Origin: an uncultured Candidatus Sumerlaeota bacterium
Lineage (GTDB): Bacteria; Sumerlaeota; Sumerlaeia; UBA8349
DNA length: 64,000 nt
NCBI GenBank assembly: GCA_964462565.1
Contig: CAYWYC010000001.1
Coordinates: forward strand, 5,738-69,737
Direction: 5' to 3'
Shown here: positions 13,551-55,858 of the stretch, piece by piece
Position numbering within the stretch: position 1 is the first letter of the stretch
How the letters are laid out: every line of letters starts with the position of its first letter
Notes under the pieces: model-generated
Seen by the model: the letters and a program-made list of their open reading frames with translations, nothing else
Told to the model about the DNA's origin: nothing
Database searches by the model: none
Translations under genes and position numbers: made by a program

Positions 13551-13556
13551 AAGCCA

Positions 13557-14243: not shown

Positions 14244-14414
14244 ATCTTGCTCCTCACAGCTGCGATTTTCACATCCCCAGCGCCACACCTATCTTCTTCA
14301 CCACAAATTAGCACAATGTTTGTTTGTTGTTACGATCTCATTTGCTAATCTTACACTAACACTCCTTCCCATAGTATGTATTCTCAGTCTTCTATCGCGG
14401 ATTGATATATCGCA

Positions 14415-25367: not shown

Positions 25368-25401
25368 GATATTCCTGTTCAAGATAAGGGAGTCAGCAGG
25401 A

Positions 25402-40514: not shown

Positions 40515-41042
40515 CTATTCCGACTTTTCCGAATCCGAAGCCTCCGGCGCATCCATACGCTTCACGACCAGGTAAGTACTGTCGCGATCCACAACGACGA
40601 TAGGCGTGCCTTCCGGAATTTCTTCTTCCGAATAAAGCGCCCGAGCCTGCATACGCTTGCCATCGATCCGCACAAAACCCGTCGGATCCAGATCCACCAG
40701 TACCGCGCCTTCCATGCCGACCATCGTGTCTTCCGGCTTGGCATCGGGCTGGGTGGAGGAATAGGCCCCGATGGACATCTTGCGAACGGCATAAAAGAAG
40801 GCGACGGCTCCGGCGGCAACGGCAATAGGCACACTTATGAGAAGATAAACAATTCCCGCAGCCATGCCATATTCGGCAAAGCACAGATACGCGCTGAAAA
40901 GAATCAGCACGCTCCCGATAATACCGATGATGCCGCCGGGAACCAGGGCTTCCACCAGGATCAGCGCCAGGCCAACCACCAAAAGCAGTATGATTACCAG
41001 GAATGTCATCGTTGACTCGCTTTCATGCCACAGCTGAGGCAT
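40515..41042 (-). CDS. NfeD-family membrane protein (short form: N-terminal TM helices plus C-terminal OB-fold)
   Basis: Hydrophobic N-terminal half. The C-terminal GMEGAVLVDLDPTGFVRIDGKRMQARA...IVVVDRD matches the NfeD OB-fold beta-barrel. The start could also be the Met at 41009. Confidence 0.6.
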   Translation of the reverse strand: MPQLWHESESTMTFLVIILLLVVGLALILVEALVPGGIIGIIGSVLILFSAYLCFAEYGMAAGIVYLLISVPIAVAAGAVAFFYAVRKMSIGAYSSTQPDAKPEDTMVGMEGAVLVDLDPTGFVRIDGKRMQARALYSEEEIPEGTPIVVVDRDSTYLVVKRMDAPEASDSEKSE

Positions 41043-41113
41043 CCGTCAAAAAAACGTTTCCCGCAAGGCCTGCAGAGACTTCGCGGGAAAGGTCAATCCG
41101 TTTTGAATAAGGC

Positions 41114-42523
41114 TCAAACAGGCTTATGCGTTTTCTTCTTCTGGAACTTCTTGATCTCTTCCGTCTTCTTCTTGTCTTCCGGAAGGCCGCGTCCCATGAG
41201 GGCGGCAGTGGCTTTCTTCCCTTCTTCCACGCCGGGCTGGTCGAATGCGTTGATATTGTATAGCCCGCCGGAGAAGGCCGTCTGCACTTCCAGCATGTAA
41301 AGCAAACCGCCCACATTTTCCGGGGTGATTTCGTCGAGGATCAGGCGAACGCTGGGGCGCTTGGCCTTGTACAGCGCGAACTCCGTCGCTTCCAGTTCGG
41401 CATTGAGCAGTTCGCCCATATCGTTGCCCTTGAGGAAGTCGAGTTCGGAAATAGCGCGAAAACTCTTCGGAATGCGACATTGCGCGCGGAATTTTTCGAC
41501 TTGGATCAACGTGAAAATCTTGTCGTTCGGACCTTCCACGTAAAGCTGAACCTGCGAGTGCTGGTCGGTAGCGCCCAGGGCCTTGACAGGAGTCTGCCCG
41601 GCATAAACTTTTGCACCGCTGACGTCCTTGGCCTTGCCCAAACTTTCCGCCCACATCTGGCGATACCAGTCCGCCACATCGCGCAGCGCGTTTGAATAAG
41701 GCATCATCACGGAAATGACCTTGCCCTTCTTGGTGTCGGCCAGATAATGAATCGCCGAGTTCAGATAAGCGGGGTTTTTGAAAAGGTCGCTGGTCTTGCA
41801 GCGTTCATCCATTTCGCGGGCGCCGGCCATCATGCCCTTGATATCCACTCCTTCCACCGCCGCCGGAAGCAGACCGACTGCCGTGAGTTCGGAAAAACGT
41901 CCGCCCACATTGTCCGGCACGATAAAGGTGTGTTCCAGTTCCTGGGCGTCGGCGTATGGACGCAGCAGGCCCTTGGAGGTATCGGTGGTGGCGATCAGCT
42001 GCTTGGGCAGAGCCTTGGCGCCGGCCTTGCGCTTGATCAACTCCACAATCACCATCAGCTGCGACATGGTCTCAGGAGTCTTGCCCGACTTGGTAATGAC
42101 GTTGAAGATGGTTTTCTTCACGTCGATCACGTCGAGGAGTTTGGCCAGAATTTCAGGGTCCGAATTGTCCATCACGAAAAGGCGGGGGAAGCCTTTGCGC
42201 TTTTTTGAATCGACCAGGTTGTGATAGTTATGAGCCAGCGCGGAATGCACGCAGATGGGACCCAGGGCCGAGCCACCAATTCCGAGCACCACAAAGTTCT
42301 CGTACTTTTTCACCTTCTTGGCGCAGTCCAGAATCTGGTCGGCCAGATCGGTATCGTAGGGCAGGTCGTAAAAACCGAGTTGCTTGCTTTCGCGTTTTTC
42401 GATCAAATCTTCATGAATGGCGTCGGCTCGTTTCTGCAAAGCCTGGATGGATTTCAGGGTAACGCCGTGGCGGTTTCCGACCACGTCGGAGAGCGCCGCA
42501 TTGTAATCATACTTGATGGACAT
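41114..42523 (-). CDS. pgi: glucose-6-phosphate isomerase
   Basis: Bacterial/archaeal-type PGI with the SIS domain (VVLGIGGSALGP) and catalytic region. Length 469 aa. Confidence 0.9.
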   Translation of the reverse strand: MSIKYDYNAALSDVVGNRHGVTLKSIQALQKRADAIHEDLIEKRESKQLGFYDLPYDTDLADQILDCAKKVKKYENFVVLGIGGSALGPICVHSALAHNYHNLVDSKKRKGFPRLFVMDNSDPEILAKLLDVIDVKKTIFNVITKSGKTPETMSQLMVIVELIKRKAGAKALPKQLIATTDTSKGLLRPYADAQELEHTFIVPDNVGGRFSELTAVGLLPAAVEGVDIKGMMAGAREMDERCKTSDLFKNPAYLNSAIHYLADTKKGKVISVMMPYSNALRDVADWYRQMWAESLGKAKDVSGAKVYAGQTPVKALGATDQHSQVQLYVEGPNDKIFTLIQVEKFRAQCRIPKSFRAISELDFLKGNDMGELLNAELEATEFALYKAKRPSVRLILDEITPENVGGLLYMLEVQTAFSGGLYNINAFDQPGVEEGKKATAALMGRGLPEDKKKTEEIKKFQKKKTHKPV

Positions 42524-42586
42524 ATCTTTTCTTTCCTTTCCGAAAAAATCATCTCCCTATGTATTGCGAAGATGTGTGCTTTTCGC

Positions 42587-42630
42587 AATATAAAAATGGC
42601 ATCTCCGCGATGCCTTGCAGAGATGCCATC
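42587..42630 (-). terminator. rho-independent terminator downstream of the NuoEF-like gene (end of the long minus-strand operon)
   Basis: The 10-bp stem ATGGCATCTC/GAGATGCCAT, with a nested GGCATC/GATGCC alternative, is followed on the minus strand by UUUUUAUAUU. Confidence 0.5.
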
Positions 42631-42654
42631 ATAAAAACAACGTGAAGCAAGAAA

Positions 42655-45099
42655 TCACGCACCGGCTTTAACGGCTTCCTTGGCTTCTTCTTCGTCAACC
42701 TTAAGCGGCACGATATCGATCGCGTCTTCCGGACAGATATCCTTGCAGGCTCCGCACCGGACGCACTTGGCGCTGTCCACCTTGTGCTTCTTGTAGGGTT
42801 CCGGAAGAATGGCGTCGGTGGGACATGTCTGGGCGCAAAGGGTGCAGCCGATACACTTGTCGTTGATCTGGTAGCGCACCAGGTTGGGGCACTTTCCGGC
42901 CGGGCAGATGCCGTTGACATGGGCCTCGTATTCCTCACGGAAATGCTTGAGCGTGGAAACCACGGGATTGGGAGCCGTCTTACCCAAACCGCAAAGACTC
43001 GTGTTCTGAATCTTCGCCGCCAGGTCTTCCAGGTTTTCCAGATCTTTCTTGGTTGCTTCGCCTTCGCAAAGCCGCTCCAGAATCTCAAGCATACGTTTGG
43101 TCCCGATGCGGCAATAGGTACACTTTCCGCAGGACTCCGCCTGGGTAAAGTCCATGAAGAAACGCGCCACATCCACCATGCAGTCCCTGCTGTCGAGAAC
43201 CACCAGACCGCCCGAACCCATGATGCATCCCGTTTCCTTTACGGCTTCGAAGTCCACAGACGTGTCGCCCCACTCGGATGGCAAACAACCACCCGAAGGA
43301 CCACCCAACTGCACGGCCTTGAAGGTCCGGCCTTCGCGAACGCCACCGCCGATCTGATGAACGATCTGGTTGATCGTCGTTCCCATGGGGACTTCGATCA
43401 GACCGCCACGCTTGACCTTTCCGGCCAGGGCGAAAACCTTGGTGCCCTTGCTGCCTTCCGTACCGAGTTTGGCAAAGGCTTCGGGACCGTTACGCAGGAT
43501 CCATGACACGCAACCAAAAGTCTCGACATTGTTCACCAGCGTCGGACAACCCCAGAGTCCCTTTTCGGCGGGATAAGGCGGACGAAAGGTCGGCATACCG
43601 CGATTACCCATAATCGACGCAAGCAGCGCGCTTTCTTCACCGCACACAAAAGCACCCGCACCTTCCTTCACCTTCAGGTGGATGTTCTTTCCGGAGCCGA
43701 AAACATTGTCACCCAAAAAGCCACGCTCTTCAGCCTGTTCCAGCGCCTTCTTAATACGCTGAACGGCCAGGTTGTATTCCGCGCGAATGTAGAGGTAGCC
43801 CTCCGTGGCGCCAACTGCAAGCGCGCCGATGGCGATGCCTTCCAGAATGCGATGCGGATAGGCTTCGAGCAACATGCGGTCCATAAACGCGCCGGGGTCG
43901 CCTTCGTCGCCGTTGCAGACGATGTACTTGGTATCGCCTTCCGCGTTATGCACGAGATTCCACTTGGTCCCGGTCGGAAAACCCGCGCCGCCTCGGCCAC
44001 GCAGGCCGCTGTTCTGGATGGCCTTGATAATATCCATTTCGCTATATTCTTTGGAGCATTTTTCCAAGGCGCTATAGCCGTCGGCTTCCACATATTCATC
44101 GATATCCAAAGGATCGATCGCGCCGCACTGGTCGGTTACGATACGCACCTGGGGGTCCAGAAAGGCTCCCCCGTCGCCCGTCTTTGGATCGATGACAACG
44201 CCCGTCTGTCTGACTTCTTCTTCATCATTGGTCAGGAAATCGACCGCCGAAGCAATGCTGCTCTTGATGCGCCCAAACAGGGATCCGGGCTTGACCGATT
44301 GCCGGATCAGGCGCTTGGCGCTGTTGACATCGTTATCCCCAAAGAGAATCGCCTCGCCATTCGGCTTGACCACTTCCACCAAAGGCACGCGATGGCACAT
44401 CCCCGAGCAACCAACGGATTTGATCAGCACATTGGAGCCGGCCAGTTTGGCGGCCATCTTCAAGGAGTCGCAAACTTCCTGGCTACCGCTGGCGATGCAG
44501 CAGGAGTTCAAGCCCACGCGCACCTCGTATTGCGGCTTGTCTTCACCAAGTAGTTTCTCGCGAACTTCCATGCCTTCTTCGCGGTCCTTGTCGTGCAGGC
44601 CGGCTTCTTCGTCCCGCAGGAATTTTTCCAGCGAATCCGTCGCCTTGCCCGGCGTCAGATGACCGAAGGTGTAACCGTCGATCAGCATAACCGGAGCCAG
44701 CGTACAACAACCAATACAACCCACGCGCTCCAGGGTAAACACCTTGTCGCAGTCGGTATCCTCATCTTCACTGACGATTCCCAACTCACGCCGAAGGGTA
44801 TCGCTGATCCGTTCCGCGCCTGCAACATGGCAGGCCGTACCATGGCAGACCTGAACCACGTGCTTACCGGTTTCACGATGACGAAACTGGCTATAGAAGG
44901 TGGAGATACCCATGAGTTGGGAGGCCGATATGTCCGTGTTCAGACAGACATAGTTCATGGCCTCCATGGGCAGGAATCGCCACTGGCGCTGAATCGCCTG
45001 AAGAATGGGAATAGCCGACTCCGGCTTGTGCCCGCACTCCTTGATGATGCGATCCAGTTCCTTAAATTCGGTAAAACGTCCATTTTCTTCTGACATCAT
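42655..45099 (-). CDS. fused NuoE-like [2Fe-2S] thioredoxin-fold plus NuoF-like NADH/FMN flavoprotein with additional Fe-S ferredoxin domains (HndC/HydB-like NADH-dependent diaphorase subunit)
   Basis: N-terminal NuoE motifs (CHGTACH...CIGCC). A second 2Fe-2S-like module. NuoF signatures GLRGRGGAGFPTGTKW (NADH), FVCGEESALL (FMN) and CGKCTYCR (N3 cluster). Two C-terminal 4Fe-4S motifs (CIGCTLCAQTCP, CVRCGACKDICP). Length 814 aa. Confidence 0.85.
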   Translation of the reverse strand: MMSEENGRFTEFKELDRIIKECGHKPESAIPILQAIQRQWRFLPMEAMNYVCLNTDISASQLMGISTFYSQFRHRETGKHVVQVCHGTACHVAGAERISDTLRRELGIVSEDEDTDCDKVFTLERVGCIGCCTLAPVMLIDGYTFGHLTPGKATDSLEKFLRDEEAGLHDKDREEGMEVREKLLGEDKPQYEVRVGLNSCCIASGSQEVCDSLKMAAKLAGSNVLIKSVGCSGMCHRVPLVEVVKPNGEAILFGDNDVNSAKRLIRQSVKPGSLFGRIKSSIASAVDFLTNDEEEVRQTGVVIDPKTGDGGAFLDPQVRIVTDQCGAIDPLDIDEYVEADGYSALEKCSKEYSEMDIIKAIQNSGLRGRGGAGFPTGTKWNLVHNAEGDTKYIVCNGDEGDPGAFMDRMLLEAYPHRILEGIAIGALAVGATEGYLYIRAEYNLAVQRIKKALEQAEERGFLGDNVFGSGKNIHLKVKEGAGAFVCGEESALLASIMGNRGMPTFRPPYPAEKGLWGCPTLVNNVETFGCVSWILRNGPEAFAKLGTEGSKGTKVFALAGKVKRGGLIEVPMGTTINQIVHQIGGGVREGRTFKAVQLGGPSGGCLPSEWGDTSVDFEAVKETGCIMGSGGLVVLDSRDCMVDVARFFMDFTQAESCGKCTYCRIGTKRMLEILERLCEGEATKKDLENLEDLAAKIQNTSLCGLGKTAPNPVVSTLKHFREEYEAHVNGICPAGKCPNLVRYQINDKCIGCTLCAQTCPTDAILPEPYKKHKVDSAKCVRCGACKDICPEDAIDIVPLKVDEEEAKEAVKAGA

Positions 45100-45140
45100 T
45101 TATTTCCTTATTCCGGCATTTGCGTCGGGTCAAACGGCAA

Positions 45141-47042
45141 TTACTCCTGCTTGCCGATGGCGTACAAATAGCCTTCGCTTCGAATGTAGATTTTGTTGTC
45201 CACAAAGGCGGGAGTACCGTAAATCGGTTCGTCCAGCGAGCCTTCGGACAGGGCCTTGTATTCATCACCCAAGCTGAAAATACGGGTGATGCCATCATTG
45301 CAGGCCAGATAGATGGTGTTGGCTTCATCGCTTACATAAATCGGAGACGCTGTCGCCCCGGCAGGCAGAAATTCTTCCCAAAGCAGACTACCGTCTTTGG
45401 TGTTGAAGCAGGTCAGGTAACCACCCGCCGCCACCTGGAGCACATAATCACCCGCCGTCACCGGGCTGACCGTATCAGGCAGACCATCGTCGGCCTTCCA
45501 GACAATGTGATCTTCCCCAAGGGTGCCGCTGCCGCCGGGTTTGATAGCCAGCAGTTCCGCGCCGTCGCAGGTGATATACATTTTTTGTCCGTCCCAGGCC
45601 GGAGACGGACCGGGTTCGCAGAAATACCATTCGGCGCGCCATTTTTCCTTGCCCGTCATGGGATCATAAGCCGCGTTCCACTCAGGAGCGACCAGCACCA
45701 GTTCATCACCACTTTCGGCGGGAACGATGGACGGCGAAGCCCAGGAAGCGCCAAAAGGACGGTTCGTCTTGAAGACTTCTTCGCCCGTTTCGCCCTTAAT
45801 GCCATAGATGAAAGAACTGTCCACATCGTCGTGATCCCACTGCACATAGACCAGACCCTTGTGGGCCAGCAAGGAAGAAGCATAGCCGTACATGCTTTCA
45901 TGCCTGCCGAAGCTGTTGATCCATTTCACATTTCCATCAAAGTCCACCGCCGCCAGATGTCCTGTCGCAAAAATGGCGTACACATATCGCCCGTCTGTCG
46001 CGGCGGTCGATGCGGCATAGCCCGTATCGGGATAGATATCGGTCAGTTCAATATCATCTTCTTCAGGGATGTCCAGTTTGCTTTCCCATAGCATTTCGCC
46101 ATCGGCCCGGTTAAAGGCATAGACATAGCGGCTTGCGCCGTCGGCGCCGGTCAGAAAAATCTTGTCGTCCCAGATGATGGGCGAATTATTACCGGGCATT
46201 ACGAGTTCCGTGGTCCACAGAATATTCTCTTCGGCAAGGCCGTCCCATGTATCGGGGTAGTCGCCTTTTTCGGCAATGCCCAGGTTGCCGGGTCCACGCA
46301 AACAGGGCCAACTGAATTCCGCTTCCGGCAGTTCAACCGTTTCGGGAGCGGCGGGGGTCGGCTCCGGCGTGTCCCCACCATTTTCGCCAGCGCCGTTCGT
46401 TTCCGCATCGCCATCCGTCGCCTCGGCCATCTGGCTCTGATCGACCTTCTTGGCCATCTCAGTCCAGTCTATGTCTTCCAGGGCCCCCCTGCCGACAAAG
46501 GCCAGGATCACCAGCGCCGCAATCAGCACCGCGCCCACAATCGTGGCCATCAGGGCAATGCGGCCCTTGTAAAAATCGCTCATGCCATTTTCACCAAGTT
46601 GCGCCTGGATATCGCTCAGCCGTATCTTTCGTTTCTTGGCTTCCGATTCCAGATTTTCAATCTCACTTTTCAGCAAGGCTTTCTCTTGTTGAAGGTCACC
46701 AGAAGTCGGCGGGTACTCCAGCGCCAGGCTGAAATACCACTTTGCGGAAATGATCCAGAATACCAATGCGCCTAACATGATATAAAACGCCGCCTGAAAG
46801 CGCTCACGGTTGCGGAAATATTCCTGTCGCAAAGTCAGGTCTTTTTCGCGAATTTCTTCCATCAGTTCCTTGTTTTGGGGATCGGAGGCCAGTTCCTCCT
46901 TCATCTCATCCAGTTCCGTGGTCACCAGCAGGCCACTTTTCTGCTCCTCCAAATACTGGTAAAAAACCACGCCCAGCATAATAACAAGAAATACTCCCAA
47001 CACGATCATCAGATTGAATGCGATTTTCTTTTTCTGATTCAT
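45141..47042 (-). CDS. membrane-anchored PQQ-type (BamB-like) beta-propeller repeat protein with N-terminal TM helices, coiled-coil and a Gly/Asp/Glu-rich linker
   Basis: Two hydrophobic helices flank a coiled-coil segment. A low-complexity ATDGDAETNGAGENGG linker follows, then repeated YVYA...DG..LW / GKEKWR motifs typical of PQQ-like eight-bladed propellers. Confidence 0.7.
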   Translation of the reverse strand: MNQKKKIAFNLMIVLGVFLVIMLGVVFYQYLEEQKSGLLVTTELDEMKEELASDPQNKELMEEIREKDLTLRQEYFRNRERFQAAFYIMLGALVFWIISAKWYFSLALEYPPTSGDLQQEKALLKSEIENLESEAKKRKIRLSDIQAQLGENGMSDFYKGRIALMATIVGAVLIAALVILAFVGRGALEDIDWTEMAKKVDQSQMAEATDGDAETNGAGENGGDTPEPTPAAPETVELPEAEFSWPCLRGPGNLGIAEKGDYPDTWDGLAEENILWTTELVMPGNNSPIIWDDKIFLTGADGASRYVYAFNRADGEMLWESKLDIPEEDDIELTDIYPDTGYAASTAATDGRYVYAIFATGHLAAVDFDGNVKWINSFGRHESMYGYASSLLAHKGLVYVQWDHDDVDSSFIYGIKGETGEEVFKTNRPFGASWASPSIVPAESGDELVLVAPEWNAAYDPMTGKEKWRAEWYFCEPGPSPAWDGQKMYITCDGAELLAIKPGGSGTLGEDHIVWKADDGLPDTVSPVTAGDYVLQVAAGGYLTCFNTKDGSLLWEEFLPAGATASPIYVSDEANTIYLACNDGITRIFSLGDEYKALSEGSLDEPIYGTPAFVDNKIYIRSEGYLYAIGKQE

Positions 47043-47102
47043 TGAATCTTTCGCCCTTCTAATAAAGAATTCTTGCTGCTCTTTGTATATGTGCGCCGTC
47101 TT

Positions 47103-47579
47103 TTAAAGACGGTTCGGTTCCGGTATGGTCTCACCGGTTTTCTCGCGTTTACGCTGATGCTCCACGGGACAAGCGTCATAACAACGCCCGCAAGCCAGGC
47201 AGTAGCCATAATCGGCCTCATAATCCGAACGCTTGCCCTTGAAAAAAACGTTGCCGATCTTCATGGCAACAACCAGACCCAGGAAGACGCCCAGGATCGT
47301 CGCGCCGACGCGGTACTTACCGCGCATCATGGTGGCCCGTTCGTAAATGAACTCCGCCGGCATGCCCTGTGCCCGATAGGCCTCCGTCTCCAATGTTTGC
47401 TCTTCCATCTGCTGCTTTTCTTCCAGGTAAAGCCGTTCCGCCACGCGGACAGAATAATCCATGCGCGAAAGCGAATGAGCCGCCAGTCTCCCAACAATGC
47501 CGCCTACAATCGGCAGTAATACCAAGGCCGCAACAAAAACACCAAAACGGTGAAAGCGGTTTTGTATATAGATCTTCAT
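47103..47579 (-). CDS. small membrane protein with two TM helices and a single C-terminal ferredoxin-like CxxCxxCxxxCP motif
   Basis: CLACGRCYDACP near the C-terminus. Two hydrophobic helices (FGVFVAALVLLPIVGGIVG and VGATILGVFLGLVVAM). The start is at the internal Met MKIYIQN, abutting the upstream NapH-like gene. Confidence 0.5.
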   Translation of the reverse strand: MKIYIQNRFHRFGVFVAALVLLPIVGGIVGRLAAHSLSRMDYSVRVAERLYLEEKQQMEEQTLETEAYRAQGMPAEFIYERATMMRGKYRVGATILGVFLGLVVAMKIGNVFFKGKRSDYEADYGYCLACGRCYDACPVEHQRKREKTGETIPEPNRL

Positions 47580-47580
47580 C

Positions 47581-48459
47581 TTATGCACCTTCCTCAAGTT
47601 TTTTATCGGATTCCCGAATCGCCCCAAAGGGACAGGCGTCCCGGCAAAGCCCGCATACCACGCACTTGTCCGGCGTGATGGTCACATGCTTCCACGAAAA
47701 GCGCGAAAGCAGACTCAGCAAAGCGCCATAGGGGCACAGATAACGGCAATAAGCCCGTCCCACAAACATGCAGAGGATGATAAAGGCGATGCTGATCACC
47801 CAGAGATAAAACTGTGCCGAAAAACGCCAGAACGAGACAAAGGGGTCATACTGGCAGATAATGAGCTGTGAACCCAGGGCCGCGAAAAGCACCGCAAAAC
47901 CCAGGTAGAAATAGCGGATAATGCTCAGGCCCTCGTCCAGATACCGAGGCACCCGAATGGGCTTTACCAATATCAATTCCTGCATGGCGCCCAGCGGACA
48001 TACCCCGGCGCAAAAAACGCGCCCGTAAAAGATAGACAAAACCAGAGGCAGCAGGAAAAACAAAAGCACGAATCCCGGCAACGCATAGGTCGGATCGAAG
48101 ATGGCCATCGACACGTTGCCAATTGCCCCAATCGGACAAACGCAACCCCTCCGATAAAAGCCGAAATAAAGCACGGCGAAAATGGTCATACCGAGCATGG
48201 CCTTGCGGCTGCGCAGCTTATAGATAAAAAACGTGGCCACGATCAAGGCTATCGCCAGCACCCCCGTATCCATCCAGGCCTTCCAGCCCTGCCGGGCGGG
48301 CGTCTGACTTTTGTATGGATACTCATAGTCAGGCCCGAAATCCGGCGGGGGAAACCTTTCTTCCACACTGGCGGTCCAGCCGGCTCCCACAAGCAGAAAA
48401 ATGATGGTGACGATCAATCCCAGGATGATCGTTTTTCGTCGTAAGGCGAGTCCATTCAT
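47581..48459 (-). CDS. NapH/MauN-family membrane polyferredoxin (CX3CP-motif iron-sulfur membrane protein)
   Basis: Multiple TM helices interleaved with GCVCPIGA, CAGVCPLGA and CRYLCPYGA motifs, plus a C-terminal CVVCGLCRDACP 4Fe-4S motif. This is the classic NapH/NosH/MauN architecture. Confidence 0.75.
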   Translation of the reverse strand: MNGLALRRKTIILGLIVTIIFLLVGAGWTASVEERFPPPDFGPDYEYPYKSQTPARQGWKAWMDTGVLAIALIVATFFIYKLRSRKAMLGMTIFAVLYFGFYRRGCVCPIGAIGNVSMAIFDPTYALPGFVLLFFLLPLVLSIFYGRVFCAGVCPLGAMQELILVKPIRVPRYLDEGLSIIRYFYLGFAVLFAALGSQLIICQYDPFVSFWRFSAQFYLWVISIAFIILCMFVGRAYCRYLCPYGALLSLLSRFSWKHVTITPDKCVVCGLCRDACPFGAIRESDKKLEEGA

Positions 48460-48527
48460 TGCTTCACATAATTCCGATTCTAATATGAGATGTGTTCATA
48501 CATATTCCAACGTGCTGCGTCCTGCGC

Positions 48528-49124
48528 TTATGCTTCTTCCTTCGGCATTTTGCCCTTGGCTTCCGGAATACGCGGAATATAGGGATCGTTCGCCGGTACG
48601 CGCCGGAAAGCGTCGGCCGGACAATTGACCGCAATATTGCACTCGTTGCAGTTCACGCAGAGCCCGTGATTCACCTGCAGGTAAAGCGAGCCATTGCCAA
48701 ACTGGGTGCAACCCTTGACGCATTTGCCACAGGCATTGCAACGATCCTCATCCACATTGTACTCAAAATAAGGATCTTCCGCAAAACGACGATCCAAAGC
48801 ATTGACCGGGCACAGCTGGTTTTCCGCCGCTTCCGTCAGGGCGTTGGGTTCGGCTTCAAAAAATCCCGTGCACAGGTCACAATAGCCGCACATGGGAAAG
48901 TAATGAAAGCACTTCACCGCGCTTTGGTCCAGAACGCAATGGGTGGCGCACTGACCGCACTGGCTGCACTTGTCCGGATCAATCTGCCAGACGGTCCCTT
49001 CCTTGGAGCCCTGGGCAATGCCTTTCATGGTCAGCCCGATTGCCGTGCCGCCCAGAATCAGGCCACCGGCGGTTCGTCCGCAAAGGGTGAGGAAATTCTT
49101 TCTGCTTATTTTTTTGTCACTCAT
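48528..49124 (-). CDS. Tat-exported periplasmic 4x[4Fe-4S] ferredoxin, NapG/MauM-like
   Basis: SRKNFLTLCGRTAGG twin-arginine-like leader. Four Cys clusters (CSQCGQCATHC, CGYCDLC, CNACGKCVKGC, CVNCNECNIAVNCP). Confidence 0.75.
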   Translation of the reverse strand: MSDKKISRKNFLTLCGRTAGGLILGGTAIGLTMKGIAQGSKEGTVWQIDPDKCSQCGQCATHCVLDQSAVKCFHYFPMCGYCDLCTGFFEAEPNALTEAAENQLCPVNALDRRFAEDPYFEYNVDEDRCNACGKCVKGCTQFGNGSLYLQVNHGLCVNCNECNIAVNCPADAFRRVPANDPYIPRIPEAKGKMPKEEA

Positions 49125-50032
49125 TTTGATGCTCCATTTTCCTTTATGTTGAAGAATCGAACCTTGTTCTGAAAACTGTCAAGCAGAACGATGCGGTCGT
49201 CCTTGTCCACAGCCAGGTCCATTCCTTCAGTGCTTGGGTTGAAATTTTCTTTGCCGCCCAAAAAGGCCAGCATTTCTCCATCGGTGCTATAGATTTTCAG
49301 GCGGGGAATGCCCTTTTCGGCAGTGATAACCCTTCCATCATCCATAACATACAGATTGCAGGGATTGCAGCAGCCGCAAAATCCCTCGGCATTGCTTCCG
49401 AATTGGCCCCAGTTTTTGGTCAATTCATGATTGGCGTCATAATATTCCACACGATGCTTGCCCGTGTGTCCCAAAACCAGCATCCCCTTGGAGTCAAAGA
49501 CCAGATCAAAATAGGGGCTGGGAATCAAAAAGCCATCGATATAATCCACATAATCGCCCACAGTGGCAAAGCGCGACACCCGTCGGCTGCCCGCGTCGGC
49601 AATATAAATGAATCCATTTTTCAGGGCCAGGCCGGTGATAAAGAGAAACTGGCCGGGATCGCGTCCCTTCTCACCATAGGCGGTTTCCTTGTTGCCGTCC
49701 TTGTCATAAACATTCACCTGCCAACGACTGGCGGCATAAACCTTGCCATCATCACCAACGGCGATAGCCGTATAGGGGGATTCCGAATCGATCTTGCCGG
49801 TCCGTTCGCCATCGGCATTGAAAATATGTACTCCCTTGCTGCCGGCCACATAGATTTTCTGATCGGGACCAATGGCGATGGATTTCACCATATCCATTTC
49901 CACCTCGAAAGCGGCATCCTTGTCCTCGACCAGTTCATATTCCAGATTGCCTTCGTCCGCCGCCCAAACAGAGGGGGCAGCAAGACATACCAGCAAAAGG
50001 ATGGTTAATATACAAAGCGTTGCTTTTTTCAT
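49121..50032 (-). CDS. secreted NHL-repeat six-bladed beta-propeller protein containing an FCGCCNPCN cysteine cluster
   Basis: Cleavable signal peptide (LLLVCLAAPSVWAAD). Repeated GxxGxxPGQFxxPxGLAxxxNGxIYIADxGxxRVxxF NHL-type units. The unusual Cys cluster sits in blade 5. Confidence 0.7.
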   Translation of the reverse strand: MKKATLCILTILLLVCLAAPSVWAADEGNLEYELVEDKDAAFEVEMDMVKSIAIGPDQKIYVAGSKGVHIFNADGERTGKIDSESPYTAIAVGDDGKVYAASRWQVNVYDKDGNKETAYGEKGRDPGQFLFITGLALKNGFIYIADAGSRRVSRFATVGDYVDYIDGFLIPSPYFDLVFDSKGMLVLGHTGKHRVEYYDANHELTKNWGQFGSNAEGFCGCCNPCNLYVMDDGRVITAEKGIPRLKIYSTDGEMLAFLGGKENFNPSTEGMDLAVDKDDRIVLLDSFQNKVRFFNIKENGASK

Positions 50033-50040
50033 ATTTTACC

Positions 50041-51489
50041 TCATTTCCTCAGGTCCACGCAGACCATCTCGGTCATGTCGCGCAGGAGTAGCAGGCCATC
50101 GGCGTAAGCCATGGGAGCCCAGGCGTCATGGCCATCAAGCAGGTCGAACCGGTCCAATTCCCGATATTCTTCAGGTGTCGCTTCCACGATATGCAGCGCG
50201 CCTTCCCGGTCGTCAAGCACATAAAATAACTCACCCACAAGCAGATAGGGCCCCAGGCCAAATCGCGTTCGGCCACTGGACCAGGCCCATTCGCCGGTGT
50301 CCGGCTTCAGGCAAACCATTTCGGCCGGTTTGGGCTTCACGCCATAAATATGGCCCTTATAAAAAATGGGAGTCTGCTGATCGGAGCCAAACTCCTGGGC
50401 CTTCAACGCGTAAAGTTCTTCCACGCCAATCGTGCCGTCGCCCTGTTCAACCAATTTCACCATCATCGAACCCGCATTGTAGCCGCCGCTGAAAAAGATG
50501 CGCCCGTCATCCGGTCCCAGATATACCGGCGAAGGCACGTTGGCGATACCGATCTTCCATTCCGGCTTGGTCCACAGCAGTTCATGGTCTTCGGCGGAGA
50601 TGGAAACCACGCCCTGACCGGTGCAATAAACAAACTGCTTTTCGCCGGCGAATTCAATCGGCAGGATCGACGAGTGCGTCATGCCCATGTTGTCCAGTTC
50701 CGGCGCCGTCCGCCAGACCTCTTCACCCGTTTCCAGATCCAGAGCCAGCATAAGCGGCTTGGTACCGGGGGCAATGACGACGGTATCGCCTTCAATGACC
50801 GGACACTGCCCGGCATACCACGGCGGCACGGTGCATTGATATTCCTCAACCATGTTGATAGACCACTTCTTCTCACCGGTCTTCGCGTCCAGACAAACCA
50901 GATGCAGTTTGGGTCCGAGAGACACCACATAATCATCGGTAACGGCGGGGATAGTCCGCGACATACCATGGTTGCGCTTGATGCTGACCGAATAGGTGAA
51001 TCGCCAGATTTCCTCGCCCGTTTTCAGGTTCAGGCAGCGGATGGCGTCCTCTTCCTTTTCACGGTCATAGTCGGTCACGTAAGCCATTCCATTAAGAATC
51101 GCCGCACCGGCGTGGCCTTCGCCCATTTCCACGCGCCAGAGCACGGGAGGCCCCTCTTCGGGCCAGTCGCGGGCCAGTTCACCACCAGAATCGGCGATGT
51201 TTTCCAGTTGCGGACCGCGAAACCAGGGCCAGCTGCCCGGCAAATTCGATGCCGTTGCGGTTCCCGGGATTAGCGTCCCGAGGTTCAGGTCTTCCTGGCT
51301 CGATGCACTGGCCGTACGGTCGTAAAAAACCGGTCGCCGGACCATAAATTCCTTTTCACCCACCGGCTCCTGCATGATCCAGTAAAGCCCCAGACCAAAG
51401 CAAATAAGCGCCACGAGGGCGGCGGGAAAGGCCGGGTATTCCATCATAAGACCATACAAACCGTTGGTTGTTTTTTTATCTTCACTCAT
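50041..51489 (-). CDS. membrane-anchored PQQ-type (BamB-like) beta-propeller repeat protein
   Basis: N-terminal signal-anchor FPAALVALICFGLGLYWI, then tandem PQQ-like repeats (LNLKTGEEIWRF, LDAKTGEKKWSI, LDLETGEEVWRT, LKPDTGEWAWSS). Confidence 0.7.
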   Translation of the reverse strand: MSEDKKTTNGLYGLMMEYPAFPAALVALICFGLGLYWIMQEPVGEKEFMVRRPVFYDRTASASSQEDLNLGTLIPGTATASNLPGSWPWFRGPQLENIADSGGELARDWPEEGPPVLWRVEMGEGHAGAAILNGMAYVTDYDREKEEDAIRCLNLKTGEEIWRFTYSVSIKRNHGMSRTIPAVTDDYVVSLGPKLHLVCLDAKTGEKKWSINMVEEYQCTVPPWYAGQCPVIEGDTVVIAPGTKPLMLALDLETGEEVWRTAPELDNMGMTHSSILPIEFAGEKQFVYCTGQGVVSISAEDHELLWTKPEWKIGIANVPSPVYLGPDDGRIFFSGGYNAGSMMVKLVEQGDGTIGVEELYALKAQEFGSDQQTPIFYKGHIYGVKPKPAEMVCLKPDTGEWAWSSGRTRFGLGPYLLVGELFYVLDDREGALHIVEATPEEYRELDRFDLLDGHDAWAPMAYADGLLLLRDMTEMVCVDLRK

Positions 51490-51493
51490 TTTC

Positions 51494-54400
51494 CTACTGC
51501 TCCTCCTTCAAGCCTCGTACCACTGGTGAACGCAGCACACTGAAAGCGCTCAACCAGGTCGTTAATAATCCACAAGCGTAAATTCCCAAAAGAATGACCA
51601 CCAGGCCCTCCCAGGGGATGCGCGCCGAACGCATATAGATAGATGGCGCTATGCTAATTATAGCACAGATCGTCCCAAAACCCATACCCGCGGCAAGCAA
51701 AAACCCATTTTCGGTCATAGCCAGCCACATCCTCTGGCTGAAGCGATAACCCAAGGCACTGAAAAGCGCAAATTCCCGACGACGCTCAATCAGATTGCGC
51801 AGCAGCGCCAGACCTAAACCAATCGTTCCAAGCAGAAGCCCCAAGCCCCCTAAACTCATGAATGTAGAGAGATAGGTATTCTCCACCTGCATCAGGGCGT
51901 TGAGTTTGTCCGGCGCACCGGTCAGGTCCAAGCCGTAATTCGTAAACTCGGCTTCCAAAGCCTGCGAAATGGCGTCCGCCTGATCAAAAGGCGCTTCCAC
52001 CGCAAAGACCGACCAGCCGCTGATCGCCGCATAGGCCGCCTCGAAATTCTTTTCTGAAATCATCAATTCATTTTGCAGCACACTTTTTTGCAGCATGGCG
52101 ATGATCGTTATATCCTTGCCGCCCACTTCGATGGACTTGCCGATCCCCAGATGCAGCAGCCAATAGACGGTCGTATAATCGCCAATGGCCGGAATGCTGC
52201 CATCCTTGAGCGGCTTGTTCAGCAGCGCCCAGGGATTCTCCAGGTCGGCCTCGGAAACGCTTCCTTCCCTGAAGGCCGACGCATCAATCACACCGGAAAA
52301 ATTAAAACCGCCCCGTTCGATAAAAGGATCGCTGACTCCGACAATACGCGGCTCATGGGCAGCATAGAGATTCAGACAGCTGATTTCGTCACCGGGCCGC
52401 AGGCGCATGGTGAAAATTTCCGCATTTTCTTCAACCATTTGCTTTTGGGCATCGTCCTGCCAGTCGCTTTTCAGGGGCGCGCGATGCAGCGGAAATGCCG
52501 ATTCACCGATCAGGGCAAAGCCACCCGTTCCGGAATCCTTCTCTGTCTGCTTGTGGGCCACCTGCCGGTTCGAGCCGACCGCTACAATCAGGAAAGTCGC
52601 GCTTGCTACGAGAGCCGCCACCATCAGGCTGCGTCCGGCCTGGCGCTTGGTATTCGTCGCGCCAAGACGTGCCAAACTCAGTTTTTCCGGCTTCATTCCC
52701 GTCTCACCACCCAGCCAATAGCGGAAAAAGGCAAGTGCGCCAACCAACAGCAAAGCGCCGATGATAAAGAAAAAGGCCGCCTGACTGTGCGCCGGCTGCC
52801 AACTGGCCGGAGCAAGCAGCCCCAGGCCACTGATCACGCAAATAAAGCCGACCCACAAACTGACCCGACGCTTGCCACCCGTCAGGTCCAGCTGCTCCGT
52901 GCGTCCCGCCAGCAGACTGCGTTCGGGAATCTTCACCAGAATTCGTGTGGCGATCCACATGGAAATCATGGCAATAATCCAGCCGCCCACAAAACCGATC
53001 CCCAGACTCACCGGTGTGGCCGCAAATTCCAGAAAGGAGCCGCCGATGGAGCCGACCCACCAGTTGTTAAGCCCATAGACCAGAACAGCCGCATAGCCAA
53101 GCCCCATGATAATCCCAAGAACGCCGCCACCCAGGGCCACAATGCCGCCTTCCGTCAGAAGCAGACGACGGGCGCGCCCACGTCGAAAACCGACCGAAAG
53201 CAAAAGACCCAATTCCCGCGAACGGCTCTCGATACCCAACTTAAAAAGCACTTGCAGCAGCGCCGCCGCCGAAATCAGCAGAAACAGGCTGAATCCGATA
53301 AAAAGCCCGCCAAAGTCGGTGGTACCCGAACTGGCATCGAGTCCCTGCTGCTTTACCGGCTCAAAAACCATCCCCGCCGAAGCAGGCGTAAAGTTTTTTC
53401 GCAAATTCGACCGAATGGCATCGGCATATTGTTTTTCCCAAATAATCGAAGTCAGGTCGCCATAGCGGTTTGCCCACATGTTTTTGGCATCGGTCATCGA
53501 GACAAAGCCCTTGGGCAGGGTCCGGTAATCGTCCCAGTATTTCTCATCCTTTTCCCGAATTCGCCTCAGGTCCAGGGGAAAAGGCGGATCCCAACTGGCC
53601 ACCGTGTCCGCGTCGGAAACCCCCTCGATATGGGGCGTTACCGCGCGATCCAAAAGCGGGGCGTCCATCGGTATAATTTCTTTTAAGGTAAAGTCCGACG
53701 ATTTTTCGACCAGCAAACCACCCTCACCGGTAGCGAAATAGGTCAAAGTCACCGTATCGCCCGGCTTCGCGCCCAGGTCGTCGGCAGCCCACTGGGTCAG
53801 GCTGATCTCCCCTTTTTTCAGGCCGGCCGACTGAATCGAAGCGGCCATGGAATAGGGAATCGACTTGTCCCCGATGGCAATGCCGTTGGCCAGATAAGAC
53901 AGTACGCGGTCGGGATGCAGGCTTTCGCGGGTTTCGGCACGCACGGCCTTGGTCGCGTCGGAGGCCAGATTCTGCTCATAATCCCCCATAAAAACCCGTC
54001 GGCTCTCCAGCACAAAGTAGTCGTCCGTCTCGCGAAGGATAATGCCGGCATTTTCCATGTCGGCATTTTGCACTAAAGCCTCCTGGATAGTCGTATCGGA
54101 ACCGGAAGCAAAGATCGCGTTGACCATGCCTTCCCGCTCCATGCGCGCCTGGATTTCTTCTTTCGGAATAAAGAGGTTCATCGGGCGCTGCTGGCTCGGG
54201 CGCAGGCTGAATCGCCCCAGACTCGAGTCGGGCAAAATCCGCTTCACCGTCTGCCGCATCGTGATTACGGTATCGTCTTTTTCGCCCAGGAAGGTCTCGC
54301 GCGGCACGGCGCTGGGTTTCTGGATGCGCAGAATAACGTCGTCGCCTTCCGACACGCCGATCTCATCGGCCAGCGTCTGGTTGATAACCGCGCTGAAGGC

Positions 54401-54811
54401 GTCAATCTCATCCCAGTTTATGTCAACGTCACCGAATTTCCAGAAATCACCATCCACTCCCAGGACCTGCACCTGACCCGCGCGGGCTTCCGTCGAAGCG
54501 TTCGACACGGTTCCGCGCTGAAAAACCACTCCCCTTGCGGCAATCTCACCGCCGGAAGCATCCTGCTCAATCTTCTCTGTCAGGTTTTCGTTGAAAAAAA
54601 GGTCATAGACCAAAGCATTATCAACATCTCCAAGCGCTTCCAGAACAATAGCTCGAAGGCTGTGGCGCATGGAATCGCCCACCAGGAGCGACCCCGTCAG
54701 CACGGCCACCCCCACGGCAGCCGCCAGCATGACCGACAGTTGAATCCGCCAGTAATTGCGCAGGCTGCGCTTAATAAAGGAGGAGATGGTGAATTGCTTA
54801 ATCGCCATCAC
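51494..54811 (-). CDS. ABC transporter permease with two FtsX domains (MacB/LolE-like, 1105 aa)
   Basis: Two 4-TM FtsX-type modules (around FGGLFIGFSLFLLIS... and TFMSLGGLGLLLGTIGL...), each preceded by a large extracytoplasmic domain. It overlaps the ATPase gene by 14 bp. Confidence 0.8.
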   Translation of the reverse strand: MMAIKQFTISSFIKRSLRNYWRIQLSVMLAAAVGVAVLTGSLLVGDSMRHSLRAIVLEALGDVDNALVYDLFFNENLTEKIEQDASGGEIAARGVVFQRGTVSNASTEARAGQVQVLGVDGDFWKFGDVDINWDEIDAFSAVINQTLADEIGVSEGDDVILRIQKPSAVPRETFLGEKDDTVITMRQTVKRILPDSSLGRFSLRPSQQRPMNLFIPKEEIQARMEREGMVNAIFASGSDTTIQEALVQNADMENAGIILRETDDYFVLESRRVFMGDYEQNLASDATKAVRAETRESLHPDRVLSYLANGIAIGDKSIPYSMAASIQSAGLKKGEISLTQWAADDLGAKPGDTVTLTYFATGEGGLLVEKSSDFTLKEIIPMDAPLLDRAVTPHIEGVSDADTVASWDPPFPLDLRRIREKDEKYWDDYRTLPKGFVSMTDAKNMWANRYGDLTSIIWEKQYADAIRSNLRKNFTPASAGMVFEPVKQQGLDASSGTTDFGGLFIGFSLFLLISAAALLQVLFKLGIESRSRELGLLLSVGFRRGRARRLLLTEGGIVALGGGVLGIIMGLGYAAVLVYGLNNWWVGSIGGSFLEFAATPVSLGIGFVGGWIIAMISMWIATRILVKIPERSLLAGRTEQLDLTGGKRRVSLWVGFICVISGLGLLAPASWQPAHSQAAFFFIIGALLLVGALAFFRYWLGGETGMKPEKLSLARLGATNTKRQAGRSLMVAALVASATFLIVAVGSNRQVAHKQTEKDSGTGGFALIGESAFPLHRAPLKSDWQDDAQKQMVEENAEIFTMRLRPGDEISCLNLYAAHEPRIVGVSDPFIERGGFNFSGVIDASAFREGSVSEADLENPWALLNKPLKDGSIPAIGDYTTVYWLLHLGIGKSIEVGGKDITIIAMLQKSVLQNELMISEKNFEAAYAAISGWSVFAVEAPFDQADAISQALEAEFTNYGLDLTGAPDKLNALMQVENTYLSTFMSLGGLGLLLGTIGLGLALLRNLIERRREFALFSALGYRFSQRMWLAMTENGFLLAAGMGFGTICAIISIAPSIYMRSARIPWEGLVVILLGIYACGLLTTWLSAFSVLRSPVVRGLKEEQ

Positions 54812-55469
54812 GCAAAGTCCCTGATTCCAGTCTCAAAAGCCGGCCAAAACGCCGCGCGAATGCTTCGTTATGGGTGACTGAAATCATCGCCACATCTTCC
54901 GATTCCAGCAGTTCCGTAAAAATCTCGGCAATCGACTCACCCGTTTTCTGGTCCAGATTCCCCGTCGGCTCGTCGCAAAGCAAAATATCCGGCTCGTTCA
55001 TCAAGGAACGGGCAATCGATACCCGCTGCCGCTCTCCACCGGACAGGTCCACCGGCAAATAATCGGTCCGCGGTTCCAGTCCTACCTTTTTCAGCAACAT
55101 GCGGGCGCGGTCCACTTCTGTCGCCCCACACTTTTTGCGCGCCAGGGCCGGTACCAGCACATTTTCCAGCGCTGAACACTGCGGCAGGAGTTGGTGGTCC
55201 TGAAAGATAAAACCCAGACTCTCATTTCGAAAGTCGGCAAGTTGTTTTTTGTTCAGTTGGAAGGGATCACGTCCGGAAAGCAGCACTTCACCCGACGAGG
55301 GTGTGTCCAGCGTCCCCAGAATATGGAGAAGCGTACTCTTGCCGCAGCCGGAAGGCCCCATGATAGAAACGGCCTGCTTCTTCTCAACAAAAAGATCGAC
55401 GCCCTCCAGAACGTGCACTTTGCCTGCCCGGGTGTCGAAATACTTTTTCAGATTCCTGGCTTCAATCAT
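54798..55469 (-). CDS. ABC transporter ATP-binding protein, MacB/LolD-like
   Basis: Walker A GPSGCGKST, signature LSGGERQRVSIARS, Walker B ILLCDEPTGNLD. Length 223 aa. Confidence 0.9.
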   Translation of the reverse strand: MIEARNLKKYFDTRAGKVHVLEGVDLFVEKKQAVSIMGPSGCGKSTLLHILGTLDTPSSGEVLLSGRDPFQLNKKQLADFRNESLGFIFQDHQLLPQCSALENVLVPALARKKCGATEVDRARMLLKKVGLEPRTDYLPVDLSGGERQRVSIARSLMNEPDILLCDEPTGNLDQKTGESIAEIFTELLESEDVAMISVTHNEAFARRFGRLLRLESGTLRDGD

Positions 55470-55858
55470 TTTCGCTGTCCTCTATCCAAGGCAATTGCGA
55501 GCGATCTGGATTGCAATACATAATAGGCACTGCTTTTCCGGGGACATGCCGTATTCCCGGTCAGTAGAGCCTCTATAATTTTCCTTCATCCATTTCGCGC
55601 ACTCAATCACCACATGGGATATTGTACTAAAGGCCAGGCATGAATGCGAGTAAAAAAAGCATATCAACCGCACAAAAGCCCAAAAGCCCATTATTGATCA
55701 CAAAGTCAACGCCTGAACGCAGGAAATACTAATATCAGCTCGCAAAACTAATTTTCAGAAAATACTCACAGCAGATTCCAGAAAACTGATCTTCCCCTTA
55801 TCGGAGCCCCTCGTGCAGTAGTGACCGCAAGCGCCCTTGGGCTTTAATGCTAACACCC

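Follow-up and report, generated by a model that had tools for sequence, protein, structure and literature searches.

A fused BfuC-BfuB flavo-iron-sulfur protein closes a conserved operon of NapH-like, polyferredoxin and beta-propeller genes in a Sumerlaeota bacterium

The bfuCB gene and its operon

A 64,000-nucleotide stretch of DNA from an uncultured Candidatus Sumerlaeota bacterium (the window) carries, at 42655-45099 on the minus strand, a gene here called bfuCB. Its open reading frame (ORF) together with Pfam, NCBIfam and PDB matches identify the product as a fused BfuC-BfuB (NuoE-like plus NuoF-like) flavo-iron-sulfur protein of 814 amino acids (aa). An earlier note, made from the letters of the window alone, had described this gene as an orphan NuoE-NuoF fusion at the end of an operon of membrane ferredoxins and periplasmic propellers. 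bfuCB is a single uninterrupted ORF of 814 codons with a putative ribosome-binding site, AAGGAA, 8 nt 5' of its start; the public annotation begins one methionine later and thus gives 813 aa. The 814-aa protein is 100% identical to the NCBI entry 'NAD(P)H-dependent oxidoreductase subunit E [Candidatus Sumerlaeia bacterium]'. In reverse complement, the window corresponds to positions 917-64916 of contig JBKHDG010000001.1 (64,999 bp) from the metagenome-assembled genome (MAG) GCA_046541435.1, and the arrangement around bfuCB is identical in a second MAG, GCA_046543105.1. Gene and context are therefore not an accident of assembly.

Consistent with the proposed fusion of NuoE-like [2Fe-2S] and NuoF modules in one chain, Pfam domain annotation and PDB alignments placed both within this ORF. 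The N-terminal part (aa 16-159; 44623-45054, on the minus strand as are all operon features below) is a BfuC/NuoE-like thioredoxin-fold [2Fe-2S] domain (PF01257, 2Fe-2S_thioredx, E 8e-44) with the ligands C85, C90, C128 and C132, and it aligns to NfnC of C. saccharolyticus (9bov_C) with an E-value of 3e-40. An acidic linker of ~30 aa (aa 160-191) separates it from a second thioredoxin-like [2Fe-2S] domain (aa ~192-290; 44230-44526), which holds the B5 site (C200, C201, C231, C235). This second domain has only a weak Pfam match (DUF1636, E 6e-4) and was recognized by its alignment to NfnB (residues 7-102 of 9n5u_B and 2-63 of 9bov_B). The NuoF-like module (aa 329-728; 42916-44115; TIGR01959 alignment, PF01512 and PF10589) comprises the FMN and NAD(H) loops, which read GRGGAGFPTG, CNGDEGDPGAF and GAGAFVCGEE in the translation, a putative SLBB domain, the B1 [4Fe-4S] site and the Zn/B2 site. 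Within it, Complex1_51K (PF01512) covers aa 361-531 (E 3e-45) and NADH_4Fe-4S (PF10589) covers aa 643-727 (E 1e-35), while SLBB (PF10531) at aa 556-604 scores 24.2 bits, below its cut-off of 27, and aligns without gaps to solved BfuB chains. Finally, a 2x[4Fe-4S] ferredoxin domain (B3/B4; 42709-42867; C749/752/755/759 and C779/782/785/789) lies at the C-terminus, with Fer4-family matches at aa 745-797. Two ferredoxin domains had been proposed for this end of the protein; the two [4Fe-4S] motifs are there, but they form a single dicluster domain.

We aligned 116 full-length BfuCB homologues (54-77% identity). The candidate metal ligands of all sites (C1, B1, B2, B3/B4 and B5) are conserved at 0.97-1.00 in this set. 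The four C1 [2Fe-2S] ligands of the NuoE-like domain are invariant, the cysteines of the C-terminal B3/B4 domain are conserved at 1.00, and the B5 ligands at 1.00 (C200, C231, C235) and 0.97 (C201). The B1 [4Fe-4S] ligands are C657, C660, C663 and C703. The B2 zinc site consists of H727, C732 and C737 plus either C605 or C640, a 3Cys+1His composition that has been described for this site (PMC11829005), and the B3/B4 domain is the ferredoxin-reducing end in solved Bfu enzymes (PMC11829005). The FMN and NAD(H) loops are conserved as well; their loss on alignment, which by the earlier note would have spoken against its reading, was not observed.

bfuCB is the last gene of an operon that runs on one strand in the order 5'->3' ABC ATPase, permease, PQQ1, NHL, polyferredoxin, NapH-like (two genes), PQQ2, bfuCB. 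Directly past its stop codon, at 42630-42595, is an intrinsic-terminator-like hairpin (42595-42630, minus strand) with a 14-bp stem and a T-run, which is the top-ranked terminator-like site in 41000-59000 and closes the operon; the next gene is pgi. Thus, the gene does terminate an operon of membrane ferredoxins and periplasmic propellers, as had been supposed. Rfam and tRNA scans of the window returned no matches, and for the neighbours of bfuCB NCBIfam gave only generic matches below threshold.

Relatives of BfuCB and conservation of its gene cluster

By its sequence, BfuCB clearly belongs to a known superfamily: it is the BfuC-BfuB core of the electron-bifurcating Bfu (HydABC-type) family, fused into one chain and Nfn/Stn-like. 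The family is defined by its BfuB plus BfuC core (PMC9304861). In that definition, BfuB combines a Nuo51 FMN-binding domain (IPR011538/PF01512), a NuoF [4Fe-4S] domain (IPR019575/PF10589), a ferredoxin-type domain (IPR017896) and SLBB (IPR019554/PF10531), BfuC has a NuoE-like [2Fe-2S] domain (IPR002023/PF01257), and BfuA, with at least [2Fe-2S] and [4Fe-4S] domains, is found in the cluster except in 'Type 4' (PMC9304861). BfuCB has the FMN-binding, NuoF [4Fe-4S] and C-terminal ferredoxin-type domains of BfuB, and PF01257 is the N-terminal domain of the same chain. A BfuA is missing at the window locus, which makes BfuCB either a Type 4-like member or one whose BfuA gene lies elsewhere. With the family as described by Schut et al. 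2022 (PMC9304861), BfuCB shares the BfuBC core, FMN and six metal sites. Type 4 (Rub-Bfu) is the BfuA-less type, unrelated partners may replace BfuA, and some Bfu enzymes are membrane-bound, as predicted for Mbh-Bfu and Nuo-Bfu (PMC9304861). However, NapH-like proteins, Tat (twin-arginine translocation) polyferredoxins, PQQ-like/NHL propellers and MacB-type ABC transporters are not among the Bfu functions of that survey, and the terms 'fused', 'fusion', 'PQQ' and 'propeller' are absent from its text. The Hydrogenedentota Bfu paper likewise has no mention of fused BC cores, PQQ or propellers.

We compared BfuCB with all PDB sequences. The highest scores were to NfnB of T. sibiricus (9n5u_B, 703 bits), NfnB of C. 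saccharolyticus (9bov_B, 683 bits) and StnC of S. ovata (8oh5_B, 676 bits), followed by [NiFe]- and [FeFe]-HydB (596-639 bits) and by the beta subunits of NAD-dependent formate dehydrogenases (FDH) and Nqo1/NuoF (350-396 bits); the top matches of the N-terminal 190 aa were NfnC and HydC. A neighbour-joining (NJ) tree of the B core (421 columns, 100 bootstraps) united the window clade with the NfnB proteins of T. sibiricus and C. saccharolyticus and with S. ovata StnC at 90% bootstrap, apart from [FeFe]- and [NiFe]-HydB and from the Chloroflexi/Geobacter homologues. As a distance tree with few reference sequences, it is indicative of a placement of BfuCB with the B subunits of Nfn-Bfu/Stn. The architecture had been likened to HndC/HydB, and it is indeed of the HydB/HndC plus HydC/HndA type; however, the PDB matches and the tree point to the B and C subunits of the electron-bifurcating Nfn-Bfu/Stn transhydrogenases as the nearest characterized relatives, and not to hydrogenase/FDH diaphorases or complex I.

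The B and C subunits of Nfn-Bfu/Stn match BfuCB over its full length, including the thioredoxin-like and dicluster domains, and the cofactor ligands are common to both. In contrast to these enzymes, BfuCB has C and B in one polypeptide, there is no NfnA within 64 kb, and the gene sits in an operon for membrane and periplasmic proteins, which is unreported for Nfn-Bfu or Stn. HydABC and HndABCD (HydB+HydC; HndC+HndA) have the domain order (HydC, then HydB) and the cofactors of BfuCB, at 596-639 bits, but BfuCB has no HydA or HndD nearby and belongs to a separate clade in the NJ tree. In HoxF of the NAD+-reducing [NiFe]-hydrogenase (5xf9_A) and the beta subunit of W-formate dehydrogenase (7e5z_B), the NuoF-like part starts at about residue 190. 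We take the N-terminal parts of these two chains to be NuoE-like, so that a fused NuoE-NuoF chain is presumably already a known idea. Unlike BfuCB, however, both lack the thioredoxin-like B5 and the C-terminal B3/B4 domains, according to the description of the Bfu family, and they score 276-299 bits against BfuCB compared with ~700 for Bfu B subunits. In NfnABC, the C-terminal domain of NfnC meets the thioredoxin domain and the C-terminal domain of NfnB in a 'tripod' (PMC11829005). The fusion would be mechanistically sensible because the linker of BfuCB joins the C subunit to the B thioredoxin domain, which are partners in this tripod.

The gene order around bfuCB is conserved across phyla. 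The core order PQQ1, NHL, polyferredoxin, NapH-like, PQQ2, BfuCB was present in eight of nine homologue contigs looked up, namely L001, L003, L004 (Thermoguttaceae), L005 (Phycisphaerae), L076, L077 (Poribacteria), L078 and L160, and in L001, L003, L005 and L078 PQQ2 and BfuCB overlap by their stop and start codons. A Bryobacteraceae genome (L007) has the cluster too, and in Rikenellaceae (L006) the last propeller stands beside BfuCB, with the contig ending just upstream. The cluster is found in Sumerlaeota, Planctomycetota, Poribacteria and Acidobacteriota, and probably in Bacteroidota. We also performed the reverse scan, in which metagenomes were searched with the NHL propeller, the protein most specific to the system, as anchor. 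It gave >529 relatives, from which the best 80 loci were kept. The order NHL-polyferredoxin-NapH-like-PQQ2 was seen in 41 of these, 30 were evaluable for BfuCB, and BfuCB followed PQQ2 directly in 27 of the 30. The proposed tie between the flavoprotein and the propeller system is thus supported by synteny from both directions.

A contig scan by peptide patterns of BfuCB alone retrieved mostly distant Chloroflexi/Geobacter homologues, usable only as outgroups. These have fused or adjacent BfuC/B homologues, with C and B as separate genes in several, and no propeller cluster; the BfuCB-propeller association is therefore specific to the window clade. No description of a cluster of BfuCB with NapH-like protein, polyferredoxin and propellers was found in the literature. 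The apparent wiring of a Bfu core to a NapH-like, Tat polyferredoxin and multi-propeller envelope system thus seems to be undescribed and yet is widespread, across several phyla and hundreds of metagenome matches.

The Anaerolineales (L008-L075 set) differ in gene structure: the tblastn match spans ~3.2 kb versus 2.4 kb here, and there is a separate BfuB-like gene of ~600 aa. Given the extra sequence between separate C-like and B-like genes, these are not true fusions. A GltD/Fer2_4-like match lies downstream in most of these loci.

The window departs from most relatives at the 3' end of the cluster. An NfnA-like gene follows BfuCB, usually directly, in all 25 metagenome loci that were evaluable and in the majority of the relatives looked up (in L078 at 12436-14004). 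In the window, the region past bfuCB (42524-42654) leads by way of the terminator to pgi. It encodes a protein of ~520 aa with Fer2_4 [2Fe-2S], Fer4_20 and a GltD-type FAD/NAD(P)H domain, whose top PDB matches are NfnA and StnA; characterized NfnA/StnA have 963-1178 aa, and their middle, cluster-carrying part is absent from the shorter protein. L077 has a 251-aa gene between BfuCB and the NfnA-like gene, and L005 (Phycisphaerae) a 347-aa version without the flavin domain. In the 64-kb window, Pfam annotation of the large ORFs and tblastn for NfnA-like sequences found no Fer2_4, NuoG-like or GltD-like ORF, and the NfnA-like gene is also absent from the locus in the twin MAG and in the closest homologue, L160 (77% identity). 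Thus, 'orphan' is an apt name here, in the twin MAG and in L160, but not for the relatives at large. In the NJ tree, the window and L160 are nested in a Sumerlaeota subclade with NfnA-bearing members such as L078; the gene has therefore been lost secondarily or has moved to a place outside the locus. No NfnA-like protein labelled Sumerlaeia was among the best 120 database matches listed, which is weak evidence. Even without the NfnA-like gene, BfuCB still follows PQQ2 and has every ligand intact, which argues for a tie to the envelope genes no weaker than that to NfnA.

Membrane and extracytoplasmic partners, and the rest of the window

The operon begins with a LolD/MacB-type ABC ATPase (54798-55469; ABC_tran, with a LolD-like match of 244 bits that is below cut-off) and a duplicated FtsX/MacB-type ABC permease of 1105 aa (51494-54811; FtsX and MacB_PCD, with an ADOP-family match below cut-off); the permease is co-located in many relatives, but not in all. 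PQQ1 (50041-51489) is a membrane-anchored PQQ_2/BamB-like beta-propeller of 482 aa (Pfam PQQ_2 E 2e-29, alignment). PQQ2, of 633 aa, lies directly 5' of bfuCB (45141-47042) and has three N-terminal transmembrane (TM) helices, seen as hydrophobic segments, and an extracytoplasmic PQQ_2/BamB-like propeller (Pfam PQQ_2 E 3e-18). The PQQ-like propellers score far below models of PQQ-dehydrogenases and have no obvious cofactor site. In many relatives a third PQQ-like propeller (~370-385 aa) stands at the cluster edge (L001:18057-19163, L078:14027-15181, many of L080-L159); no homologue of it was found in the window.

Between the two PQQ-like proteins, the operon encodes a secreted six-bladed NHL beta-propeller of 303 aa (49121-50032), assigned from its signal peptide, its sequence and an AlphaFold2 (AF2) model of pLDDT 94. 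A Foldseek search of this model against the PDB returned generic NHL propellers only (TRIM, Thin, Lin41; PAL at rank 29) and no functional analogue. In the set of eight orthologues, one of the eight-orthologue sets that were aligned for the partner proteins, and in all 74 aligned homologues, the NHL protein has an invariant G-C-C-N-P at aa 220-224. Vicinal cysteine pairs such as this one (C221, C222) are rare. C221/C222 may form a redox-active disulfide or bind a metal, and the pair is the best candidate for a periplasmic active centre. Several relatives have a small conserved ORF of 73-83 aa without Pfam match between the NHL and polyferredoxin genes (L002:5936-6157, L003:5913-6140, L076:5916-6152, L077:1227-1478); the window lacks this small ORF, and its NHL and polyferredoxin genes overlap (49121/49124).

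The polyferredoxin (48528-49124; 198 aa) is NapG-like by architecture, with a Tat-type signal and Fer4 matches. It has 17 cysteines that are invariant in the alignment of eight orthologues, about the number for four [4Fe-4S] clusters, and is probably a Tat-exported, four-cluster protein. NapG/MauM models of NCBIfam gave no match to it at E<=0.001. The Tat signal reads SRKNFL in the window and TRQQFL in L078, and has a twin arginine (RRDLI or RRNFL) in six of the eight orthologues; the motif is degenerate in the Sumerlaeota lineage.

The next gene (47581-48459; 292 aa) encodes a polytopic membrane Fe-S protein of the NapH/MauN/NosR family with Fer4_5 (PF12801 E 3e-15), CX3CP motifs and a first 4Fe-4S motif, and the gene after it (47103-47579) a 158-aa membrane protein whose second CxxCxxCxxxCP motif identifies it, by orthologue alignment, as the C-terminal part of the same NapH-like protein. 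The whole protein thus has CX3CP motifs and two CxxCxxCxxxCP motifs with two extra TM helices between them. It scores above the cut-off for Fer4_5 in Pfam (56 bits vs 22) and below those of the NapH equivalogs (TIGR02163, 58.7 vs 213; NF007013, 46.8 vs 234), and a NosR match is below cut-off too. Basic residues ahead of the Fe-S motifs place these in the cytoplasm by the positive-inside rule, and the clusters are probably cytoplasmic. Topology work on E. coli NapH reportedly agrees with this.

The NapH-like protein is split into its two genes (292 + 158 aa; stop and start 1 nt apart) inside the two-TM insertion. In other phyla the orthologues are single genes of 430-470 aa, of which the 158-aa protein matches the C-terminal third. 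The same split occurs in L078 (272 + 142 aa) and in both MAG assemblies; it is therefore characteristic of the lineage and does not stem from a frameshift error.

As modular units for electron transfer across the membrane, NapH-like proteins are paired with the propeller enzymes NosZ, NirS and ExaA (PMC8238504). The NapGH/NosGH/NosR/MauMN modules of that survey share with the window operon a Fer4_5 CX3CP membrane protein, a Tat-type polyferredoxin and periplasmic beta-propellers. The window operon differs from them in having no FMN-binding domain, ApbE, NosZ, NirS, ExaA or Nap catalytic subunit, and in that the second Fe-S motif of its NapH-like protein is set off by two extra TM helices and stands on a separate gene. 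Furthermore, a cytoplasmic NAD(H) flavoprotein is attached to it, which is unreported in the survey; there, quinol is the probable donor for some NapH-like systems and no NuoF-type partner is reported (PMC8238504).

The other large ORFs of the window are housekeeping and regulatory genes by Pfam. A 1641-aa protein of many PAS and GAF domains (14415-19340, minus strand), with no kinase, cyclase or other output domain at E<=1e-4, adjoins a PAS histidine kinase (11769-13550) and an OmpR-type response regulator (13557-14288). Four ORFs have no Pfam match at E<=1e-4: 22833-25445 (minus strand, 870 aa), 59419-60972 (plus strand, 517 aa), 7179-7775 (minus strand, 198 aa) and 19413-20048 (minus strand, 211 aa).

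A proposed cytoplasmic redox module and its alternatives

We favour, with moderate confidence, the reading that BfuCB is a single-chain Bfu core which acts as the cytoplasmic redox module of a conserved envelope system, and it would probably be the NAD(H)-linked module of that system. In this mechanism, NAD(H) would bind at the FMN, which in BfuCB is predicted to have the B1 [4Fe-4S] and C1 [2Fe-2S] clusters on either side of it, and the B3/B4 end would dock on the dicluster domain of the NapH-like protein, which would take the place of soluble ferredoxin. Electrons would then cross the membrane via the NapH-like protein to the Tat polyferredoxin and on to the beta-propellers, or travel the reverse way. 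This topology is consistent with the Tat signal of the polyferredoxin, the signal/anchor sequences of the propellers and the positive-inside residues of the NapH-like protein. Nfn-Bfu enzymes use NADPH to reduce NAD+ and to deliver low-potential electrons (PMC11829005), and in those relatives with an NfnA-like subunit NADPH oxidation might be bifurcated to NAD+ and to low-potential electrons that enter the membrane protein. The Sumerlaeia core without NfnA could work as a simple NADH:Fe-S oxidoreductase, or else as a 'Type 4' Bfu enzyme that needs no BfuA. The earlier note had cast the protein as an NAD(H)-linked cytoplasmic electron-entry point; synteny speaks for the link to the system, but the direction was an assumption and Bfu enzymes are reversible. 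A further-reaching proposal, which we regard as tentative and rather doubtful, is that of a membrane-coupled class of Bfu enzymes, in which a bifurcating BfuCB core, with NADPH input through an NfnA-like subunit in most lineages, would pass low-potential electrons to a NapH-family protein and not to soluble ferredoxin, and onward through a Tat polyferredoxin to a periplasmic enzyme made of several propellers.

Several observations weigh against a role of BfuCB as the cytoplasmic module of the envelope system. The coupling of BfuCB to the envelope is read from gene order, and a Sumerlaeota homologue (L079) is found in an unrelated gene context. Furthermore, 3 of the 30 evaluable clusters have no adjacent BfuCB, and a search of these three for an alternative electron-input module found none, the last propeller being followed by unrelated genes. 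In the relatives, BfuCB and the NfnA-like protein might by themselves make up a complete soluble transhydrogenase, with no tie to the envelope genes beyond co-transcription. Both the NapH-like protein and the polyferredoxin stay well short of the NapH equivalog cut-offs. NapH proteins are generally regarded as quinol-linked, and with quinol as donor a cytoplasmic NADH module would not be needed; a quinone role of the NapH-like protein is possible. The propellers are without a recognizable cofactor site, with the NHL model matching generic folds only, and in the Sumerlaeia organism bifurcation loses its thermodynamic logic for want of a BfuA.

Of the other explanations, the likeliest is that BfuCB is the B/C part of a soluble Nfn-Bfu (Stn-type) NADPH:ferredoxin/NAD+ transhydrogenase, with the NfnA gene elsewhere and the proximity to the propellers reflecting co-regulation at most. 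The nearest solved relatives are NfnB/NfnC and StnC, the gene next to BfuCB in every evaluable relative is NfnA-like, with NfnA/StnA as its top PDB matches, and only ~65 kb of the genome is covered. However, this explanation leaves unexplained why BfuCB has a constant position at the end of the propeller/NapH cluster across phyla, often with overlapping stop and start codons, and why it keeps this position and its ligands after the NfnA-like gene has been lost from the locus. The NfnA-like protein of the relatives is also about half the length of NfnA/StnA and without their middle part, and none of the best 120 database matches listed is labelled Sumerlaeia, although the latter counts for little. 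We thus consider a soluble transhydrogenase unlikely.

It is improbable that BfuCB serves a bifurcating [FeFe]- or [NiFe]-hydrogenase or formate dehydrogenase (HydABC/Hnd/Fdh-Bfu), with a catalytic subunit encoded elsewhere, as its NADH/ferredoxin module. The HydB+HydC architecture and the PDB scores to HydB are compatible with it, and L001 has [FeFe]-hydrogenase genes 8-10 kb from the cluster; these are on the opposite strand, and one of them has its own NuoE-like domain. Pfam scans of all large ORFs in the 64-kb window detected no H-cluster (Fe_hyd_lg_C), [NiFe] or molybdopterin domain, in agreement with the earlier statement that no hydrogenase or FDH lies nearby. Nor is there room for a catalytic subunit just outside the window, where only 916 + 83 bp of contig JBKHDG010000001.1 remain. 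No HydA-like gene was found within ~10 kb in 80 related loci, where FDH was not specifically searched, and the NJ tree sets the clade with the Nfn/Stn B subunits, apart from FeFe and NiFe HydB. Least probable is that BfuCB is a fused NuoE-NuoF N-module of respiratory complex I or of a complex-I-like NADH:quinone oxidoreductase. NuoF and NuoE models do top the NCBIfam list, and homologues bear the JGI name 'NADH-quinone oxidoreductase subunit F', but the equivalogs stay below cut-off (TIGR01959, 471 vs 558.65; NF010120, 361 vs 389; NuoE NF005722, 117 vs 141), the window has no other nuo genes among its large ORFs by Pfam, and in the PDB comparison NuoF reaches about half the score of the Bfu B subunits. 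Moreover, the extra thioredoxin-like and C-terminal dicluster domains are not found in Nqo1/NuoF. The complex I and hydrogenase/FDH diaphorase readings were rejected on these grounds.

The cluster bears on two wider matters, the role of Bfu clades without an assigned third substrate and the electron supply of NapH/NosR-family proteins, whose Fe-S clusters reportedly face the cytoplasm. Schut et al. 2022 left 17 BfuB clades unassigned (PMC9304861). A periplasmic reaction centred on the NHL propeller, with its invariant vicinal Cys-Cys, could be a new enzyme activity. Should a membrane-coupled class of Bfu enzymes exist, it would supply power, independent of haem and quinone, for a strongly reducing extracytoplasmic reaction, or in reverse would harvest low-potential periplasmic electrons as NAD(P)H, and the Sumerlaeia locus, having no BfuA, would represent its minimal form in nature. 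The Sumerlaeia variant, having no NADPH subunit, offers a natural experiment on which parts are essential, and the BfuCB cluster is a concrete candidate for haem-free transmembrane electron transfer that would be driven by NAD(P)H and perhaps boosted by bifurcation.

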